From: a virus
Lineage: Duplodnaviria; Heunggongvirae; Uroviricota; Caudoviricetes
Reading direction: 5' to 3' (one strand)
Length of the DNA: 25,360 nt
Virus record (IMG/VR): IMGVR_UViG_2734482786_000001
Coordinates: 1-25,360 of that record
The stretch's first letter is position 1, and the number at the start of each line of letters is the position of its first letter. The notes below the pieces were generated by a model. That model saw nothing but the letters and a program-made list of their open reading frames with translations, made no database searches and was not told the DNA's origin. Made by a program: the position numbers and the translations under genes. Positions 12,349 to 23,472 of this stretch are shown here, piece after piece.

Positions 12349-14130
12349 TTAGATTATATTATAGGCCTTCGCTGACATAGATAATGTTCTAATCTGAACT
12401 TTTTGGGCATTCCATTCCTCATCGTTAGATGAATACTCATCAATAAACTCATTAACCACCTTAAGGTTTGACTTCTTATACTCGTTTATTTTTTTACTTA
12501 AGCTATCATTTTTACATGATTCATTCAAAGTAAAGCAAAGAGGAAGAAGATTCCCCATTAATCCAACAACCTCTGAGTCAAAACTACTTTGTGCACCAAT
12601 ATGCTCGAGTGAAACTAAGTCTAATTTTAACTCATTAGTTCCTCGCAATTTCTTTTCAAAACGTTCAAAAATATACATTATGAGCTTACGCTGGGAGGCT
12701 TTTTTATTTGTATAAAATAAATTTTTAACAAATGCCTCATTGAATACTTTTTCATTTGGACTTTTCGCAGAAAAGTATGCTATTGCTTCACTAATGGTTG
12801 ATTCGATACTACGTTTATTAGTAGCTTTATCAAGGCTTACTGCTAATACTGAATACTTGGCGTCTATGCCAGAGGGTCTTAATCGGCAAATAGCATTAAA
12901 TCTAAAGTGGAATCTCTCTAAACACATTAGACACTCTATTAAACTTTTTTGCGAAAGACTTCTAGATTTATCTCTTCTTTTTCTTAATAATGACAAAATG
13001 AATGGGCGAGGGATTGAAACATTGAATATTTCAAATGCTTTAAGTGAATTGTAAATATCTCGCTGATCCTGTTGAGGCCAATCATCAATATCTGGAGAAA
13101 TTATCTTACAATATAAATCAACATCTTTATGCAACTCATCCAAAAATGAAATTGCAGTTAATCCATAAACACCATCATTTATCTCTCTTTTAAAGGCACG
13201 GTATAGTTGATCTTCACCTATATAATTAAACTTAGAAAGCCACCAACACCTGACATAATCAACCATTGTAGCGTTACTATCTCTAGCTTCGATGCAATTA
13301 GTAATATAATCCCATTTCTCTTTGGCTTTATCTATTGGATATGTTTCAATACAACTCTGGAAAACTTTATTTTTAATCAGATCAAGGGAGCTTAAGTTTA
13401 TTCCCCTTGCATTCAAAACCTCGAAAATATCATACGCGTCATCTTCCTTGCCTACTGATATCCTTACTAATTTAAGATAATTAGTAACCATATTGTAAAC
13501 GGCATTCAAGCAAAAAAGGTAATCTTCCTTTTTATACTTTACTGCACCGTCACGCAACAAAGAAGAACATAATGCTTTCTTTCCTAGCTTTCTGCTTAAA
13601 TACAACCCAGCATATTGAATCTTTTTATCTTCATCGCAAGTCACATCAGCTTTATGCTCAACTCTATCTTGGAATTTTAGTTTAAAAAAAGCCCTGTCAC
13701 TATTTTTAGAAAGCTTCTCAACTACTGAGTCGCCATTAGAACTGACAGAATTTCTATTGAACGTCTGATTTGCGGTTACGATATATGTTTTAAAAATATC
13801 ATCAGCAAATTCGGCCTTCCCATTTTTTCTTAAAAACCTAGAAATTAAAGAAAGTAGAATTGTAATAACACTGAAACGCTGCTGACCATCAACAATCTCC
13901 AAAACATTATCACTGTCAGCACCAGACAATACAATTGTACCAATAAAGTACTCATTGAATTCAAAGTCATCCCCTTTGGGATTTAATTTTATATTTCTTA
14001 TTATGTCTTGCCACAATTCATCAAGTTGTAACTTTTCCCAACTAAATTCTCGTTGATTCCGTGGAATCACATAACGCTGTTTAACAGAAAGTATATTTTT
14101 AATATTTAAAGGAGTTGCATCAAAATTCAT
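12349..14130 (-). CDS. DUF262/DUF1524 (GmrSD-like) nuclease family protein; candidate anti-phage defence gene
   Basis: N-terminal DUF262 signatures (VIPRNQREFSW, EIVDGQQRF, FEVLNARGINLSSLDLIKN) and C-terminal His-Me/HNH-like DUF1524 signature (SLEHIGAQ…GNLLPL…N). Start set at first ATG 14130 (RBS-like AGGGAA); the track ORF starts at TTG 14181. Strongly AT-rich relative to flanking phage genes. Confidence 0.75.
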   Translation of the reverse strand: MNFDATPLNIKNILSVKQRYVIPRNQREFSWEKLQLDELWQDIIRNIKLNPKGDDFEFNEYFIGTIVLSGADSDNVLEIVDGQQRFSVITILLSLISRFLRKNGKAEFADDIFKTYIVTANQTFNRNSVSSNGDSVVEKLSKNSDRAFFKLKFQDRVEHKADVTCDEDKKIQYAGLYLSRKLGKKALCSSLLRDGAVKYKKEDYLFCLNAVYNMVTNYLKLVRISVGKEDDAYDIFEVLNARGINLSSLDLIKNKVFQSCIETYPIDKAKEKWDYITNCIEARDSNATMVDYVRCWWLSKFNYIGEDQLYRAFKREINDGVYGLTAISFLDELHKDVDLYCKIISPDIDDWPQQDQRDIYNSLKAFEIFNVSIPRPFILSLLRKRRDKSRSLSQKSLIECLMCLERFHFRFNAICRLRPSGIDAKYSVLAVSLDKATNKRSIESTISEAIAYFSAKSPNEKVFNEAFVKNLFYTNKKASQRKLIMYIFERFEKKLRGTNELKLDLVSLEHIGAQSSFDSEVVGLMGNLLPLCFTLNESCKNDSLSKKINEYKKSNLKVVNEFIDEYSSNDEEWNAQKVQIRTLSMSAKAYNII

Positions 14131-14224
14131 ATCATCATTCCCTAGACATGACCATGGGTTGATCGTTAATTTACTTAACAAGATAGATTAAAACAACTAT
14201 TACTAATTCATATCTCAGCGCGCG

Positions 14225-15033: not shown

Positions 15034-17448
15034 TTAATACAGGTTTCGCCACTTATCATCTTCCTGCAAACGCTGGTTCCGATAGAAGATACGCAGGCCT
15101 GCTCCTGACGGAATACTGCCGCCGCGAAGGAGTAAATCGACCTCTTTCTCGCTGCCATCAAATCCTCTGGACTTCAGTTCGTAGACGAGCTGCTGTCGCT
15201 GATGGTCTGTAATTCGCTGTTTGTAGTCTTTACGCCGTTTCGGTTTCACCAGGCGTAACCTTGCAGCCAGTTCCCGGCGCTCTTTTTTGCTCATACTGTG
15301 CAGGTAATCGTGCAACTCCTTGTCATCCATGCGGGTAATGTCCGTCCTGGTATCCCCATCAGCTGATTTGTCTTTCCCTTGTTGGTTCAAATTTTCAGCA
15401 AGGGGACAGTTATTGCCACGAGTCCAAGGGGCGCAAGCGCCCTGGTCGGCTGCCGCCTCCTGAACGTCAACGGCTTTACGAACCATTTTCCACTTCACTG
15501 CATGAGTGCAGATCTTGCCCTCTGCAATGGGTGACCAGATGCCATAAATACGAATGCCGTGATCGCCATAGGCGGTCGGCTCTTCGTTGATTTCATAAGC
15601 GGTTCTGATGAGGTGATATTTACGGGGAACCAGTACGCCGCCCTGCTTCATGATGTAGGTGGCAAAACAACCAGCATCAGCAGCAGCCAGAATGGCATCA
15701 AGACGCGGGTTATCCAGTACCGGCGCACCTGCATTTTTGTCCCCCTGTTGCCTTGCCGCCTGACCAGCCAACAATCGCAGTTCACGGTAAGCCTGACGCC
15801 CCGGAATGCCAAAGAAGCGGAATTGCTGAACACGATGCAAAGACGCCCAGGCATTCACGTATTCAGCGTTATCACGCAGAGATTTACCCGTTTCCTTGCT
15901 GATCTCGCCAGCCAGACCACGACCGTCAATGTTCTTACTGATATATTTCGCGATGTAGCTTGTCGGCGTTCCTTTGCGCGGGTTAATCAACTCAGACTTA
16001 AAGCGCGGCCCAGTGTTATTGCCCAGCTCCTCGCGGTCTTCACGGATGGCAAACTTACGCAGTAATGCAGTGATGGCACGGCGGTCTTTTTTGCGCATGA
16101 AACACAACAGGTGCCAGTGAACTGTGCCATCATGATGCGGCTCAGCCACCCGCACGCCATACCAGCGCAACCCGGCTTTGTGCATCGCCTTACGAAATGC
16201 AGCAAACATGCCGACCAGATAATCGCTGCTTTGTCTTACCGTCGCGTTTGTCCAGGTCGGGTTTGGTCTGCCGTTATTTAGCGTGGAATGGAAACGCGAC
16301 GGACAGGTGATAGTGTAGAAAACGGCGCAGTCACCGCGCATTTCCGCGATAAGCTCCAGACCTTTAACACAGGCCATCATCTCATTGCGGCGATGCGCAG
16401 GGTTGCTGCTGCTGGCGTTTACCACATCCTCCATGTCCAGCGTGTCGCCGTCTTCGTTCACCAGTTCATGAGAACGGAAAAACTCCAGCGACTTACGGCG
16501 CTGCTCACGTTTATGCATCACGGCTTCATAGCTGACATAAGGAGATGCTTTTTTGCTGACCAGGCAAACAGCGCGCAACTGCTCTTCCCGCCATTCGCAA
16601 CGCATCTTCCATAATTTCCGATACCACCAGTCGGCGCACAACATACGCGCCAGCGAACCCGGAATGAGTTCATAGGGCACGGGTTTACGGCGGTTTCTTT
16701 TCCGACGGAGTTGCTCAAACGCAGGTGGGATGACATCCAGACGCAGGGTCTCCGCTGCCACCTTTTCCCATGTCTTGCGGATTTCTTCTGGCTTAACGTC
16801 ATCGGTGGCATACAAATCACCACAAGCTGCATCAAGGCACATACTCATATGCGCAGCTACCAGGGTGGACAGGCGTTTCACCTGATCCTGACTCATTTCA
16901 GGCAGGATCAGCAGGCCGTCCAGCCCTTCATGGCTTGCCATAAAGCGAAAAGATGCAGATAGCTGACTGTCGCGTACATGCTCCAGTCGTTCCAGACATG
17001 GCTTAATCGTCTCACGTAAATAGCGGGAATAAGCCTTTGGCCTGCCCAGGCTGCTGAAGTATTCAATACGTTGCATCAGCGGCTTGCTGATATGGGAAGG
17101 CTGGGCGTTGACGTCCGCCAGAATGACCATGTCTGAATTAAAACGCTGCTGCTCATGCGCCAGCTTTGCCCGGCTAATGAGCTTATCCTGCTCCATTTCG
17201 CGCTGGACAGGATCACGTGATTCATTAAAGAAATAACGCTCCCAGACCTGATCACTCAGTGCCTCGCGGCGCAACTGTTCCTGCTCGTTATCGGCAGCGT
17301 ACAGAGTGATCAGGTTTGAAAGCGTAGAAACCGGCGCAACTTCCGCCGGGTCCAGATAAGGGTTAATGGCCTTTTTCGGGCTGTTCCATGAGAATGCTGC
17401 GGCAGCCTCGTTAAAGCCGCAGCAGTTGTTCATATCGGCATGAGTCAT
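15034..17448 (-). CDS. A: Replication initiation protein gpA (rolling-circle endonuclease)
   Basis: 804 aa; HUH-like motif region (…[10 protein letters not shown]…) and active-site Tyr region (…[10 protein letters not shown]…); ATG start overlapping the dam stop. Confidence 0.85.
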
Positions 17449-18302
17449 GCACGTACTCCGTACACGGCAGAACTATCCACGCCACGCGAATAATCAAATC
17501 CCATCCAGCAGCACGGCCCGGAAACAGCAATGATTTCTGTTGCTGATTTACCCTCGCCAGCTGCCACACCGATGCTGCGTTTTACCTTGATATAGTGGTG
17601 AGTAAAATTGCGATACAGCGAACGGATCAGGGATGTGTCACTGTTAGAAACAATGACTGGATGTCCTTCTGATGACCGATGTTCAAGAACGGATGCCAGG
17701 TGATACTGGTCATCTTCAGTGAAACCATCAGTGTGATAGCCGGAAAACGTACCGTCATACGGCGGATCGCAATACACCACATCTCCCGCGTGCAACATTG
17801 CCAGCGTTTCATCGAAGCTGGCGCAGATAAATGTTGCCCGCTGGGCTTTTTCTGCAAATGCACGAATTTCTTTTTCAGGGAAATACGGATTTTTATAATT
17901 ACCGTAGGGAATGTTGAAATGCCCGCTCTTGTTATAGCGACATAAACCACGGTAACCGTGCCGATTGAGATACAGGAAATATACCGCTTTCATGAAATCA
18001 GTAATTTCAGTGGAGTAATTAAACTCCTGCCTTATGTTGTAATAAGCCACCTCCCTGTTTGCGATCTCAAATAAAACTCTGGCGCGAGATATAAACGATT
18101 CACAATCAGCGGCAACCTTTTTATAGAGGTTGATTAAATCAGGATTAATATCCGCAACCAAATAGCTGGGGTAATCCGTCTCCATCATCACAGCACAAGA
18201 ACCCGCGAAAGGTTCAACCAGTCGCGGGCCAGCAGGAAGGTGTTTTTTCAGTTCGGACATAATGGCGGTTTTATTACCCGCCCATTTCAGGATGGTGCTC
18301 AT
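17445..18302 (-). CDS. dam: DNA adenine methyltransferase (Dam family, N6-adenine)
   Basis: 285 aa; AdoMet motif I ([10 protein letters not shown]) and catalytic DPPY ([12 protein letters not shown]). Confidence 0.85.
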
Positions 18303-19589: not shown

Positions 19590-20099
19590 TCACAGCAACC
19601 CGAATGAAGCACCGAGACCAGTTACGGTATCAACTGCACTTGCCATCGCAGGATTAGCCTGTAAACGGGCCTGCAATGAAACAGCAGCCAGCGCCATCAG
19701 TCGTGTAACAGAGTTAATGCTGCTGATCGCATCACGACGGCCTGCACTGGTTTTTACATCGCCAGAAACCGCACCAGCCGCGACACGCCCTATCTCTGCA
19801 GTTGCACTCATGACGTAATGCGGTAGTTTCTCTTTTGCCACCTCATTAATCGGAACACATGGCAGACAATGAATCTGTGCCAGAAAACCATCTACCAGCG
19901 TTGAATCTTCAGTCAGATCGGTAAGTAGCCAGATATCTCGTGCAGTGAGCTGATGCGGTTGTTCCGGGTTCAGCTTGTTACGCAGCGTCTGGACGTTCAT
20001 TCCCGCGAGTTCTGCTAGCTTCGCCATATTGTGACGTAGTGCAAAAGCTCTACAGGCTTCATCAAAATGCGGATGTTTGGAAATCTTGTAATCAAACAT
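19590..20099 (-). CDS. cII: CII-like lysogeny establishment activator (phage 186 CII family)
   Basis: 169 aa, same length as 186 CII; HTH segment NMAKLAELAGMNVQTLRNKLNPEQPH matches 186 CII as recalled; AGGGAG RBS. Confidence 0.8.
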   Translation of the reverse strand: MFDYKISKHPHFDEACRAFALRHNMAKLAELAGMNVQTLRNKLNPEQPHQLTARDIWLLTDLTEDSTLVDGFLAQIHCLPCVPINEVAKEKLPHYVMSATAEIGRVAAGAVSGDVKTSAGRRDAISSINSVTRLMALAAVSLQARLQANPAMASAVDTVTGLGASFGLL

Positions 20100-20131
20100 G
20101 GTGCTCCCTTAGAAAGTTCCCATAATTGAAA

Positions 20132-20374
20132 TTACTTACCAACAATGACGCGGAAGTTGGAATGACCGAGGGATTCACGGACCTGATCAGTTTTGTACAT
20201 CAGATAACGCAGGCTTACGCGGCCTTTGTTTTTTTCTTTCTTGACCATGTACTTAGCGAGTTGACCATGGTGAATTTTTTGGTAAACAGACCCGCGGGAA
20301 ATCCCTTCCCATTCAGCGAATTCAGCAGGCGTAGCCATCTCTTTTGGTACACGAATTGAAATATCTGTGCTCAT
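20132..20374 (-). CDS. apl: Apl/Cox-like HTH excisionase-regulator
   Basis: 80-aa HTH protein, first gene of the lytic operon, oriented away from the CI repressor gene. Confidence 0.65.
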   Translation of the reverse strand: MSTDISIRVPKEMATPAEFAEWEGISRGSVYQKIHHGQLAKYMVKKEKNKGRVSLRYLMYKTDQVRESLGHSNFRVIVGK

Positions 20375-20420
20375 AGTGCAGTATCTCTTGGTTTAAGCTC
20401 GTTTTATGATGTTTAACCCC

Positions 20421-20447
20421 AACTTCTAAACTCTCATATTAGAAGTT
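20421..20447. promoter_or_regulatory. Candidate repressor operator: AACTTCTAA-N9-TTAGAAGTT perfect inverted repeat
   Basis: 9-bp perfectly complementary arms around a 9-bp spacer in the apl/cI intergenic region, adjacent to the predicted lytic-promoter start site. Confidence 0.45.
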
Positions 20448-20454
20448 AAATACA

Positions 20455-20483
20455 AAAATACGATCTCGTTATTGGATTGTCAA
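20455..20483 (-). promoter_or_regulatory. Candidate lytic promoter (pR-like): TTGACA-17 bp-TATTTT on the minus strand
   Basis: Consensus -35 (rc of 20478..20483), 17-bp spacer, -10 TATTTT (rc of 20455..20460); directs transcription toward apl/cII. Confidence 0.45.
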
Positions 20484-20497
20484 ATGGAGAGTTCATC

Positions 20498-21127
20498 TTG
20501 AAGATTAGTACAGGTGCAAATACGGGAGGGAGAGAGACCATCAAAAGGCTGATGACAGCCTATGGTTTCAACACTCAGATAGCGTTGGTTGAACACCTCG
20601 AAGCATCAAAAAGCACCATGGCAAACAGGATGTTACGTGATAGCTTCCCTGCTGACTGGGTTATTCAATGTGCCCTTGAAACAGGTATTTCTCTTCTTTG
20701 GCTGACAACGGGCCAAGGGGAAATGTATCCTCAAACAGAAGAAAAAAATAAGTTCAAAAACGAGAGTTCACCTACAGTTCGCCCCCTTTCAAAGATAGTT
20801 ATCCCATCAGTAAGGCAGGCAACCATTGAGAACGGAACGCTCGAAGAGATGGGGGATGTTTTCCTTGATCAGACTTTGATACCCGGAAAAGCCGAATATT
20901 GTTTGTACGTCAAAGCTAACGACGGCAATTACATTGTTGATACATCAACAAAACAGCTTAGTAACGGAATTTGGCTCATAGACATCGACGGTATGAAAAA
21001 CATCGTCAAAATTGCGCGCATACCTGGAAACAAAATAGTAGTTAACCAAGATGACACTTCATTTGAATGTTCTGTAGATGATGTGGAAGTCGTAGGACGT
21101 GCAGTCAAAGTAATCAAGAACCTCTAA
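20498..21127 (+). CDS. cI: CI-type immunity repressor (186 CI-like)
   Basis: HTH region …AYGF…CALETGISLLWLTTGQGE… resembles 186 CI. The track ORF starts at TTG 20477 without RBS; TTG 20498 is preceded by GGAGAG at 6-nt spacing. Start uncertain. Confidence 0.75.
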   Translation: MKISTGANTGGRETIKRLMTAYGFNTQIALVEHLEASKSTMANRMLRDSFPADWVIQCALETGISLLWLTTGQGEMYPQTEEKNKFKNESSPTVRPLSKIVIPSVRQATIENGTLEEMGDVFLDQTLIPGKAEYCLYVKANDGNYIVDTSTKQLSNGIWLIDIDGMKNIVKIARIPGNKIVVNQDDTSFECSVDDVEVVGRAVKVIKNL

Positions 21128-21130
21128 CTT

Positions 21131-22150
21131 ATGACCATCAGAAAACAGCCGAACGGAAAATGGTTGTGTGAGTGCTATCCCAATGGACGCAATGGTAAGC
21201 GCGTGCGTAAGCAATTTGCTACCAAAGGCGAAGCTATTGCATTTGAAAGCTTCACAATGGAAGAAGTGAACAAAAAACCATGGCTGGGGGAAAAGGAAGA
21301 TCGGCGACATTTATCAGAATTAATTGAGCTGTGGTATTCCCTGTATGGTCAAACACTCACAGACCCCAAGCGCCTCATGGCGAAACTTAGTATTATCTGT
21401 AATGGTCTAGGCGATCCCATCGCTTCAGAACTGACAGCCGGTGACTTTACGAAATACCGCGAAGCACGGTTAAAAGGTGAAGTACGAAATGAAGATGGCA
21501 CGCTTATGTCGCCCGTTAAGCCCCGCACGGTAAACCTTGAACAGCGCAATCTATCATCTGTTTTTGGTACACTGAAAAAGCTGGGCCACTGGTCAGCCCC
21601 CAACCCGCTTGCCGGGCTGCCAACATTTAAAATTGCTGAGAGTGAATTGGCGTTCCTGACCCCGGAAGAAATTAAACGTCTGCTGGATGCCTGTGCTGAT
21701 TCTCAAAGCTCTAGTCTGCTGACGGTTGCAAAAATATGTCTGGCCACCGGCGCGAGATGGAGTGAAGCCGAAAACCTGCAGGGCCATCAATTATCAAAAT
21801 ACCGGATCACCTACACCAAAACTAAAGGCAAGAAAAACCGAACCGTACCGATATCTCAGGAGCTATATGAAGAACTCCCCAAAAACAGAGGGAAACTATT
21901 CACGCCCTGCAGAAAAGCTTTTGAGCGCGCAGTAAAACGAGCCGGTATAGACCTGCCTGAAGGCCAGTGCACACACGTGTTGCGCCATACATTCGCCAGT
22001 CACTTCATGATGAATGGCGGAAACATATTGGTACTACGCGATATTCTTGGTCACTCTGATATAAAAATGACGATGGTTTATGCTCATTTTTCGCCAGATC
22101 ATTTAGAAGATGCTGTAACAAAAAATCCACTGGCTATGTTGGGATACTGA
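21131..22150 (+). CDS. int: Tyrosine integrase (P2/186 family)
   Basis: 339 aa; C-terminal catalytic region HVLRHTFASH…LGHSDIKMTMVYAH (R…H-x-x-R…Y). Confidence 0.9.
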   Translation: MTIRKQPNGKWLCECYPNGRNGKRVRKQFATKGEAIAFESFTMEEVNKKPWLGEKEDRRHLSELIELWYSLYGQTLTDPKRLMAKLSIICNGLGDPIASELTAGDFTKYREARLKGEVRNEDGTLMSPVKPRTVNLEQRNLSSVFGTLKKLGHWSAPNPLAGLPTFKIAESELAFLTPEEIKRLLDACADSQSSSLLTVAKICLATGARWSEAENLQGHQLSKYRITYTKTKGKKNRTVPISQELYEELPKNRGKLFTPCRKAFERAVKRAGIDLPEGQCTHVLRHTFASHFMMNGGNILVLRDILGHSDIKMTMVYAHFSPDHLEDAVTKNPLAMLGY

Positions 22151-22152
22151 TA

Positions 22153-23184
22153 ATGGAAAAAAGCATTAGCACATTTATGTACCTATCCGTTTTATTAGGT
22201 TGTATATTCTTATTTATAAAATATCGACTTTATGTTCTCGATCATAGAAGCCTGTTCCAACAACCCTTGTTCTGGGCTGCAATAGGCCTACCTTTATTCA
22301 CCAGCCTTTACTTTGGTTCTTTTGTCTGGATAGATAAAATACACTCTTTTAGTCTTACAAGTCACGGTTATGAGAGATTTTTAGATATCTCGAAATTACC
22401 ATTACTCATCCTTGCATCTGCAGTACCTTTAGTTTCAATAGTAAACAACCTACACAGAACCAAACAAACAGAAAAACAGATCTCAGAGGCAGAAAGGAAA
22501 AACAGGGTAGATTTATATTACAACCACATGAAATTTCATCTTGATTTATATAAAAAAATCGAAGGAAAAAGAATAGGCAGCTACTACCCGGTTCAGGAAG
22601 CTCAAGCTGAAGCAATCTACCAACATTTTATAAAACATCCACAAGAACTATATAGAAAAGCATACCCACAATCTACGCCTGATGATTCTCAACAATTAGA
22701 TATTAATGAGCAATTTGTTATTGATTTACACAAATGTTGGGTAGAAATCAACGCAAGACTCAAGCAATTATCCGAGAGTGAAAATCAAATACATCCTACA
22801 GAGGAACTTTGCACAACAAAGATGAGAATATTTGTAGGAGTTATGATTATTTATGAAAAAACTTGTAAACTGTTGTGTTTAGGTGGATTTCATTATAAAA
22901 AGTCATTTGTAATAAATGATAGTTATAATAAATACCAAGTTTATTCACCATTTTATGATTTTGGCACTCTGTACGAATCACTGCAATCCTTAGAAGAGAT
23001 AACCTACGCCTTCTTGGATACTTGCAGAAATGAAGTGGTAAACTTGTACTTCCCTATAGAAGATAAAATTTTGATATATGGTGAAGGGATTCTAGAGAAT
23101 TGGTTCAAGTATTCTCAGTTCTTGATCACTATAGCTTATCAACCCGCCAAGATGTCTCGCTTACCCCAGCTGAGACGCGATTGA
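22153..23184 (+). CDS. Membrane-anchored protein of unknown function (cargo between int and att)
   Basis: 343 aa; ATG 2 nt after the int stop; three predicted N-terminal transmembrane helices, then a ~230-aa soluble domain with no motif recognised by eye; markedly AT-rich. Confidence 0.6.
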   Translation: MEKSISTFMYLSVLLGCIFLFIKYRLYVLDHRSLFQQPLFWAAIGLPLFTSLYFGSFVWIDKIHSFSLTSHGYERFLDISKLPLLILASAVPLVSIVNNLHRTKQTEKQISEAERKNRVDLYYNHMKFHLDLYKKIEGKRIGSYYPVQEAQAEAIYQHFIKHPQELYRKAYPQSTPDDSQQLDINEQFVIDLHKCWVEINARLKQLSESENQIHPTEELCTTKMRIFVGVMIIYEKTCKLLCLGGFHYKKSFVINDSYNKYQVYSPFYDFGTLYESLQSLEEITYAFLDTCRNEVVNLYFPIEDKILIYGEGILENWFKYSQFLITIAYQPAKMSRLPQLRRD

Positions 23185-23300
23185 TGATGGCGACATTTTG
23201 GCGGCAGAGCTTTAAAAACAGATAAAACTGTCAAACACCACATAACACTAAAGTATTGTTTTTAAACATAAATCATTATTTTTTCTGTAGTAAAAATGGT

Positions 23301-23345
23301 ATGTAGGAATTTCGGACGCGGGTTCAACTCCCGCCAGCTCCACCA
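23301..23345 (+). repeat. Prophage attachment-site core: 45-nt duplicate of the ssrA (tmRNA) 3' end
   Basis: ATGTAGGAATTTCGGACGCGGGTTCAACTCCCGCCAGCTCCACCA matches the 3' terminus of E. coli tmRNA as recalled; upstream flank is AT-rich phage DNA, not tmRNA body. Confidence 0.75.
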
Positions 23346-23472
23346 ATCATGATTGGACGGTGTAAGGACAACACCAACAAAAACAGGAAGTTAGAAGTCT
23401 CAGCAAAACACCGACCAGACGGTGAGGAGACATAAAAGGATACGCAAAGGAGCCGCGGCTCCTGGTAACATG

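Follow-up and report, generated by a model that had tools for sequence, protein, structure and literature searches.

A candidate immunity-specific CI operator at the predicted lytic start of a 186-family prophage switch in Escherichia coli

We wanted to know how the lysis-lysogeny switch carried on IMG/VR record IMGVR_UViG_2734482786_000001 is arranged, and above all which DNA element its CI repressor would read. The window, by which we mean the whole analysed stretch of 25,360 nucleotides (nt), is the right-hand part of a P2/186-like (Peduoviridae) Escherichia coli prophage. Its switch consists of two diverging operons, cI-int in one direction and apl-cII in the other, with a cI-apl intergenic region of 123 bp (positions 20375-20497). 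It is nearly certain that this locus is the immunity switch of a 186-family prophage with a Fels-2-type Apl. The gene content, gene order, protein families and predicted promoter layout all agree with the 186/P2-like face-to-face switch proposed in an initial annotation of this DNA. The genes of the locus are already correctly annotated in RefSeq, and the switch is an uncharacterised member of a well-known kind. Our best reading, which we consider moderately probable, is that a perfect palindrome at the predicted lytic start serves as the immunity-specific operator of CI.

This palindrome, a dyad of 27 bp, has two arms, AACTTCTAA (20421-20429) and TTAGAAGTT (20439-20447), which are 100% complementary and separated by a 9-nt gap. 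It begins 7 nt past the -10 of the predicted lytic promoter, at the predicted +1. The 9-N9-9 palindrome that had been described near the lytic start is present as such. The centres of the arms are 18 bp apart and the outer hexamers 21 bp apart. An inverted repeat of this grade (perfect, 9-nt arms, gap of at most 15) was found in 215 of 20000 dinucleotide shuffles of the intergenic region (approximately 1.1%, p about 0.011).

Loci whose Apl is 92-100% identical to that of the window fall into six immunity types, and each type has its own dyad (Table 1). The letters A-F were assigned in the present analysis; type A is that of the window and type D that of phage Cartapus. In all six types the dyad starts 3-8 nt past the -10 of the lytic promoter. 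Relatives of the same type do not lack the palindrome: no fewer than 8 of the 9 arm pairs are intact in each of the 25 unique type-A sequences, which come mostly from Klebsiella and extend down to 80% CI identity. A single 27-bp frame is common to types A, D and F, and the arms show compensatory changes within it. We analyzed co-variation in 18 distinct sequences of these three types, leaving out type C. Two-sided changes were observed at 5 of the 9 arm pairs (27 cells), and 88.9% of cells were paired, compared with 26-46% when one arm was slid by 1-3 columns. None of 500 shuffles reached the observed pairing, two-sided changes or covariation score. These alignments indicate that the dyad symmetry is under selection.

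The identity between the window and its heteroimmune relatives changes sharply along the locus. It is 90-97% through apl, falls to 37-63% at 20400-20460, where the dyad lies, and is 37-70% at 20490-20600, which encodes CI residues 1-35. It comes back up to 77-90% at 20610-20670, from the recognition helix to helix 5, and drops again past approximately 20700, in the CI linker and C-terminal domain. In the homoimmune Klebsiella relative, the operator stretch is 70-93% identical, though cII is just 57-83% identical. Read from such comparisons, the profile is the classical pattern of an immunity region. The dyad is co-inherited with the variable N-terminus of CI and independently of Apl; therefore it would be a CI operator and not an Apl site, and this is our main argument.

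The predicted lytic promoter, the equivalent of pR, is the minus-strand TTGACA-17-TATTTT that the initial annotation had reported, and it was located as stated. It was the sole promoter-like site obtained from a scan of 20000-20700. The match alone is not significant, because 1.2 such sites are expected by chance in that interval. Its position and hexamers are conserved, as we observed in a set of relatives collected by Apl and CI searches, which yielded approximately 175 loci with 84 distinct intergenic sequences. TTGAC(A/G) was present at the same position in 81 of the 84, and TAnnnT followed 17 nt further on in all but two of those 81. We make this promoter assignment with good confidence. 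The facing lysogenic promoter, pL, is predicted inside the first apl codons. Compared base by base, its register relative to the apl ATG is exactly that of the annotated 186 pL (TTGCGA-17-CATGAT), and it has the same number of consensus matches (8/12), which is under the scan threshold. We infer the identity and position of pL from its homology of position. The predicted start sites (lytic at approximately 20447, pL at approximately 20391) are face-to-face and about 55 bp apart. Estimated from the predicted promoters, this separation is 51-56 bp in all relatives examined except one (46 bp). In P2-like phages the start sites of the facing promoters are 40-60 bp apart (PMC7498355).

We also observed a GATC (Dam site) at 20462-20465, in the spacer of the lytic promoter and 1 nt from its -10. 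In five of the six immunity types, nearly every relative has it at this position. A D12-class adenine methylase (17445-18302, minus strand, PF02086) is encoded by the prophage itself. It is conceivable that lytic promoter activity or repressor binding at this site is sensitive to methylation.

The CI protein itself has two Pfam domains, PF07022 at residues 14-77 (99 bits) and PF16452 at residues 105-203 (105 bits). No other family match and no S24 peptidase domain were found in it with Pfam. It matches the structure of 186 CI (2FJR) over residues 13-206 (E 2.5e-26). By these matches it is a 186-type repressor with a helix-turn-helix (HTH) domain (Phage_CI_repr) and a C-terminal oligomerisation domain (Phage_CI_C). 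The immunity types diverge in the 35 N-terminal residues of CI, in its linker and in its C-terminal domain. Residues 36-75 (approximately 20603-20722), SKSTMANRxLRDSFPAxWxIQCALETGxSLLWLxTGQG, are nearly invariant across the six heteroimmune types. Helix 2 and helix 3 are the same in types B and C, whose dyads are very different.

An alternative is that CI reads a shorter, 186-like site inside the dyad, AACTCTCA-TAT-TAGAAGTT (20429-20447; 19 bp, 5/8 pairs), the left arm serving as an additional half-site. The degenerate dyad of the promoter spacer would then be a further CI target, and together these sites would form a composite operator that wraps on a CI multimer. The centre AACTCTCA is indeed a degenerate direct repeat of the left arm AACTTCTA. 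Type C has a similar layout, AGGGTT-AGGGTTTG-TTTTT-CAAACCCT in locus L010 and TGGTTTG-GTTTTG-CTTTT-CAAACCA in locus L007, and some type-C members have the inner 17-bp 6-N5-6 site alone, which is the geometry of 186. The spacer dyads lie 29-36 bp away, which is close to the 32 bp between the two CI sites of 186 at pB (PMC3675496). Near-perfect dyads are found at the spacer position in another type-A locus (L111, ATCCCAT-T-ATTGGAT) and in type B (ATCCAAT-ATTTGAT), and further ones in type D (ATCTTGA-T-TCAAGAT) and type E (GATCACTT-T-AAGTGGTC). In the window, however, the spacer dyad is poor (4/7 pairs), and it is the outer arms, not the inner pairing, that are perfect and co-varying. The idea was derived from inspection of a few sequences. 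We consider it unlikely.

Several observations weigh against the 27-bp dyad as a CI operator, and a first group of them would fit an element that acts mainly as RNA. The first base of the dyad is the predicted start of the lytic transcript; therefore types A, D, F and C would have a hairpin at its 5' end. The co-variation of the arms is equally expected from an RNA hairpin. Types A and D have the centre AAACTCTCA in common, a conservation that a pure operator spacer would not require and that is often seen in loops. The predicted recognition helix of CI, SKSTMANR, is identical in all six types while the arms change. The palindrome could thus be a 5'-terminal stem-loop (9-10 bp, 9-nt loop) that shields the early lytic mRNA from 5'-end-dependent decay or tunes apl/cII expression, with CI binding elsewhere, for example in the promoter spacer. 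The hairpin predicted from nt 1-2 of the transcript folds at -8.9 to -11 kcal/mol for types A, D and F and at -4.6 to -10.4 kcal/mol for type C, with z of -1.4 to -6.3. Its pairing is kept by compensatory changes, and most non-Watson-Crick cells become G-U on the strand of the lytic transcript. This G-U bias, however, rests on approximately 5 versus 2-3 independent events, too few to separate selection on RNA from selection on DNA. The type B dyad, at -0.1 to -3.0 kcal/mol and z about 0, is unfoldable, and folding in type E is weak, so that a hairpin is not common to this position across types, whereas DNA dyad symmetry is. The whole 5' untranslated region is not unusually structured (z -1.1), and there was no Rfam match in 20100-20700 at E up to 1. 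The arms are also part of the block inherited along with the variable N-terminus of CI, a linkage for which an mRNA-stability element would have no need. We regard a mainly RNA function as quite unlikely.

The type B dyad, at the same position, is unable to fold into an RNA hairpin, which suggests that in this family a protein binds there. The operator and hairpin functions are not mutually exclusive, and the dyad might double as the 5'-terminal hairpin of the lytic mRNA. The operator appears the better of the two readings, because type B has no foldable element and because the dyad is linked to the N-terminus of CI.

The remaining points on the unfavourable side come mostly from comparison with coliphage 186 (NC_001317). 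The dyad is 27 bp long, compared with 17 bp (6-N5-6) for the 186 operators, and it lies further downstream than they do, in an interval that is occupied by Apl in 186. There, three 17-bp CI operators cover -50 to +7 of pR, the central one in the pR spacer (to be compared with the spacer dyad of the window), and further sites are FL, FR and two sites at pB. FL and FR lie approximately 300 bp on either side and take part in looping on the CI 14-mer wheel. In the window we find a single dyad of 27 bp spanning +1 to +27 and a degenerate dyad in the promoter spacer, but nothing equivalent to FL or FR. No FL- or FR-like site was found in the type-A prophage, whereas 186 CI uses at least 7 sites; this negative result covers copies of the dyad sequence, and a second, unrecognised type of site is possible. 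Allowing up to 6 arm mismatches and gaps of 5-13, we found no further copy of the dyad in the window or elsewhere in the prophage. A search of the prophage for dyad copies and outer-hexamer dyads gave 58 matches, compared with 50 in shuffles, and no second strong site. Finally, our literature search found no operator or transcript mapping for any Fels-2-type switch.

The search for FL and FR was extended to other types. The CI linker of type A holds no type-specific dyad, whereas types B, C, D and E have candidates there, and a dyad is likewise listed for the known FL of 186. The apl-cII junction is the same in heteroimmune types, and therefore no type-specific FR lies there. Local alignment of the operator of each type with the cI gene of each type gave scores of 6-12 everywhere and did not discriminate. 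In the CI linker, third-codon-position variability among type-A sequences dips to 0.38-0.40 at 20733-20770, compared with a typical 0.6-0.8, and the FL operator of 186 lies in cI at the equivalent place. The minus strand there reads AACTCTC-N7-AACTT, which echoes the dyad centre and an arm without an inverted repeat. We called no FL at the dip (20733-20762), where we found no dyad and a protein motif K-x-x-x-N-E is conserved.

As the recognition helix is invariant, specificity should reside in the N-terminal 37 or so residues of CI or in the residue after NR, or else the helix does not read the dyads. To judge from the title of a reference in PMC3675496, one HTH of 186 CI binds two distinct sequence types, which would be a precedent for flexible recognition. 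We tentatively propose that in this widespread Fels-2-type branch specificity is set by the first approximately 37 CI residues (N-terminal tail, helix 1 and the beginning of helix 2) in combination with one long dyad of 27 bp, the outer hexamers of which are two helical turns apart, although we hold this to be doubtful. If true, the binding geometry and the route by which specificity changes would differ from the 17-bp A/B-type operators and the multi-site wheel of 186.

Binding of the palindrome by Apl or a host protein, or its origin by chance, is very improbable. In 186 the equivalent interval between the start sites is filled by Apl sites. Here, however, the dyad is wholly different from type to type, although Apl is 92-100% identical among them, and the sites of recombination directionality factors are direct repeats, which are found apart from the dyad (20391-20416 and near att). 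By eye we saw neither a LexA-like CTGT-N8-ACAG nor an IHF-like motif. Chance is unlikely, as the palindrome has p about 0.011 in the intergenic region and is conserved with compensatory changes.

The three GTTTWA repeats at 20391-20416 are probably the Apl sites. In 186, these sites are 6-bp direct repeats 10-11 bp apart between pR and pL (PMC7498355). The repeats of the switch persist in all immunity types with the same Apl. The pattern GTTTWA-N4-GTTTWA has 4 matches in the window, compared with 0.43 expected; two are at the switch, one is by att and one is at 22189. The att-side repeats are spaced by 8-10 bp, less regularly than those at the switch, and this element also adjoins attP of phage Cartapus. 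Direct repeats one helical turn apart, a trait of the family, are thus present as sequence elements at both the switch and att. The product of apl is 30% identical to 186 Apl (E 4e-13) and matches PHROG 575, 'Cox-like excisionase and repressor'.

We next consider where translation of CI begins. The initial annotation had placed the start at TTG 20498 behind GGAGAG, and this is backed by the PGAP annotation, by conservation within type A and by aligned ATG codons elsewhere. The codon (20498-20500) is in frame with cI and is already the RefSeq/PGAP start (WP_032326671.1, 209 amino acids). The RefSeq record of the Klebsiella relative likewise begins CI at TTG, as do all 25 unique type-A relatives (CI identity 80-100%), and the five other immunity types have ATG at the equivalent codon. 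The GGAG of the Shine-Dalgarno sequence is kept in types A, D, E and F. It had also been claimed that no in-frame ATG precedes the HTH. This stands for the whole domain, which Pfam places from residue 14, and not for helices 2-3, which ATG 20552 (Met19) precedes; this in-frame codon lies within helix 1 and within the Pfam HTH domain. The 18 codons ahead of Met19 carry (T/S)GG(R/K), conserved in all six types, and they differ from those of the Klebsiella relative largely by synonymous changes. To judge by this pattern, they are clearly coding. We take TTG 20498 as the true start of CI with high confidence. TTG initiation codons lower protein synthesis in E. coli, and judged from the codon alone the translation of CI may be low.

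Just ahead of this start there is an out-of-frame mini open reading frame (ORF), ATG GAG AGT TCA TCT TGA, at 20484-20501, the TGA of which overlaps the TTG of cI (TTGA). It is kept in Klebsiella type-A relatives. It could serve to couple translation to the weak start of cI; alternatively, the frame may merely arise from the -35 and Shine-Dalgarno sequences.

Taken as a mechanism, the switch would work as follows. A strong lytic promoter would start at approximately 20447 and read leftwards into apl and cII, and a weak lysogenic promoter in the first apl codons would read rightwards into cI and int. The strong promoter would suppress the weak one that faces it by transcriptional interference, as in 186, and Apl would bind the three GTTTWA repeats between the start sites. 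CI, translated from TTG 20498, would have its main, immunity-specific binding site in the 27-bp dyad at the lytic start, and it would perhaps also bind the degenerate spacer dyad three helical turns away. Bound CI would block the lytic promoter and so relieve the lysogenic one. This arrangement resembles the generalisation made for P2-like phages, in which repressor operators overlie the lytic promoter and the Apl/Cox sites either fall between the two starts or overlie the lysogenic promoter (PMC7498355). We consider the complete 186-type model, with the dyad as the CI operator, to be on balance probable.

Table 1. Features of the immunity switch and att region of the window (positions in the window) and dyads of the six immunity types
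Feature	Position	Strand	Description
cII (169 amino acids)	19590..20099	-	second gene of lytic operon; Pfam PF06892 Phage_CP76, E 6e-43; RefSeq label CII
apl (80 amino acids)	20132..20374	-	first gene of lytic operon; Cox/Apl-type excisionase and repressor
Predicted lysogenic promoter pL	20356..20384 (-35 20356-61, -10 20379-84)	+	TTGAAA-17-CAGTAT, inside first apl codons; positional homology with 186 pL
Putative Apl operators	20391..20416	+	GTTTAA / GTTTTA / GTTTAA direct repeats, 10 bp apart
Proposed immunity-specific CI operator	20421..20447	.	perfect dyad AACTTCTAA-actctcata-TTAGAAGTT, 27 bp, approximately +1 to +27 of predicted lytic transcript
Predicted lytic promoter (pR equivalent)	-35 20483-20478, -10 20460-20455	-	TTGACA-17-TATTTT; 10/12 consensus matches
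Possible second CI site	20463..20477	.	degenerate dyad ATCTCGT-T-ATTGGAT in lytic-promoter spacer; 4/7 pairs kept, weak
Shine-Dalgarno sequence of cI	20486..20491	+	GGAGAG, 6 nt ahead of TTG 20498
cI (209 amino acids)	20498..21127	+	probably TTG-initiated 186-family immunity repressor; Pfam, 2FJR, PGAP start
int	21131..22150	+	PF24624 and PF00589; predicted co-transcription with cI as in 186; gene order as 186
Putative Apl (excisionase) sites	23214..23236	-	GTTTGA / GTTTTA / GTTTTT repeats, approximately 80 bp from att core
att core	23313..23346	+	GGACGCGGGTTCAACTCCCGCCAGCTCCACCA, duplicated ssrA 3' end
Type A dyad			AACTTCTAA-N9-TTAGAAGTT, at approximately +1
Type B dyad			ATTCAATATTTGAT, two copies 30 bp apart (+1 and promoter spacer)
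Type C dyad			GGTTTG-N5-CAAACC, at approximately +1; sometimes with extra outer half-site
Type D dyad			GTCTCTT-N13-AAGAGAC, at approximately +1
Type E dyad			GATTCCCC-N5-GGGATAATC, at approximately +1
Type F dyad			GACTCTC-N13-AAGAGTC, at approximately +1

The likeness to 186 comprises the gene order, both CI Pfam domains, the 2FJR match, the pL register, the predicted face-to-face promoters and direct-repeat Apl-type sites between the starts and near att. As far as gene content tells, the CII homologue (PF06892) represents the establishment function, another trait of the family. Apart from the operators, the two differ in the cI start (ATG in 186, TTG in the window), in the lytic -35 (TTTACT in 186, the consensus TTGACA in the window) and in the attachment site, which is an Ile tRNA gene in 186 and ssrA (tmRNA) in this prophage. 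An intact ssrA is present at the other prophage end (L179 1233-1595). The window contains just the 3' fragment of ssrA, and for this reason ARAGORN calls no gene in it.

Closer relatives are the Fels-2 and PhiECO1-PhiECO2-PhiSEN1 prophages, which have a CI-type repressor and an Apl of the Fels-2 subgroup, and the switch falls in this Fels-2/PhiECO subgroup of the 186 family. The cI-apl spacer of 123 nt compares with 116-125 nt reported for the Fels-2 group (Nilsson et al. 2011, PMC3448106). According to the same paper, which maps no operators or promoters, CI immunity classes exist in this group and are unstudied. P2 and WPhi (C, Cox, Pe/Pc) also have facing early promoters and a Cox/Apl protein that acts on direct repeats (PMC1904263, PMC7498355). 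In contrast, the C repressor of P2 is a different protein of half the size that binds direct repeats rather than inverted ones, and P2 is without CII. We rejected a P2 C/Cox switch for the window, as the locus has a 186-type CI.

Two phages are of particular use for comparison. Klebsiella phage ST437-OXA245phi4.1 (NC_049448) has the same immunity type, with the dyad AACTTCCAA-N9-TTAGAAGTT, a TTG start and 79% DNA identity. In Escherichia phage Cartapus (NC_070909), apl and cII are approximately 86-97% identical to those of the window and the 27-bp frame is the same, but the arms are GTCTCTT...AAGAGAC, the start is ATG, the spacer dyad is perfect, and the CI linker and C-terminal domain are different. 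Cartapus is presumably heteroimmune to the prophage of the window. The switch of the window is 100% identical to that of strain 2011C-3911. Among 5426 complete E. coli genomes, the switch segment was present at 93.6% identity or more in 22, and in 21 of those 22 at 98.9% or more. Type A immunity thus occurs in approximately 22 of these 5426 genomes and in Klebsiella phages.

The ogr/B promoter, at the opposite end of the prophage (L179 2447-2514, minus strand), has in its -35 region an element TTCTCAATATTGATA that resembles the element ATCTCGTTATTGGAT of the pR spacer, and a 6-2-6 palindrome, ATCATT-AC-AATGAT, overlaps the -10. The pattern common to the two elements was derived after both sites were known. 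The ogr/B promoter region is almost identical in the heteroimmune Cartapus; therefore the element is not immunity-specific. CI, if it acts at the ogr/B promoter, would use a site common to several immunity types.

The window also holds other genes. A 609-amino-acid protein (12349-14181, minus strand) has GmrSD N- and C-terminal domains and a PADLOC match to HEC-06/Orf5 (E 3e-73); by these matches it is a type IV (modification-dependent) restriction-like defence gene on the prophage. Between int and att there is an ORF of 343 amino acids (22153-23184, plus strand), for which no Pfam or PADLOC match was found. Cartapus has a RES-domain protein at this position and the Klebsiella phage another hypothetical gene, and therefore it is a variable cargo slot.

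In summary, the 186/P2 face-to-face switch is a textbook system, to which these results add little that is fundamentally new. Their use is a concrete map of an unstudied immunity type, with its predicted lytic promoter and pL, its putative Apl repeats, a candidate CI operator and a probable TTG start. One Apl and one recognition helix are common to at least six heteroimmune modules, whose dyads at the same position differ. This group of six types is a convenient natural series for studying how 186-type repressors change operator specificity.

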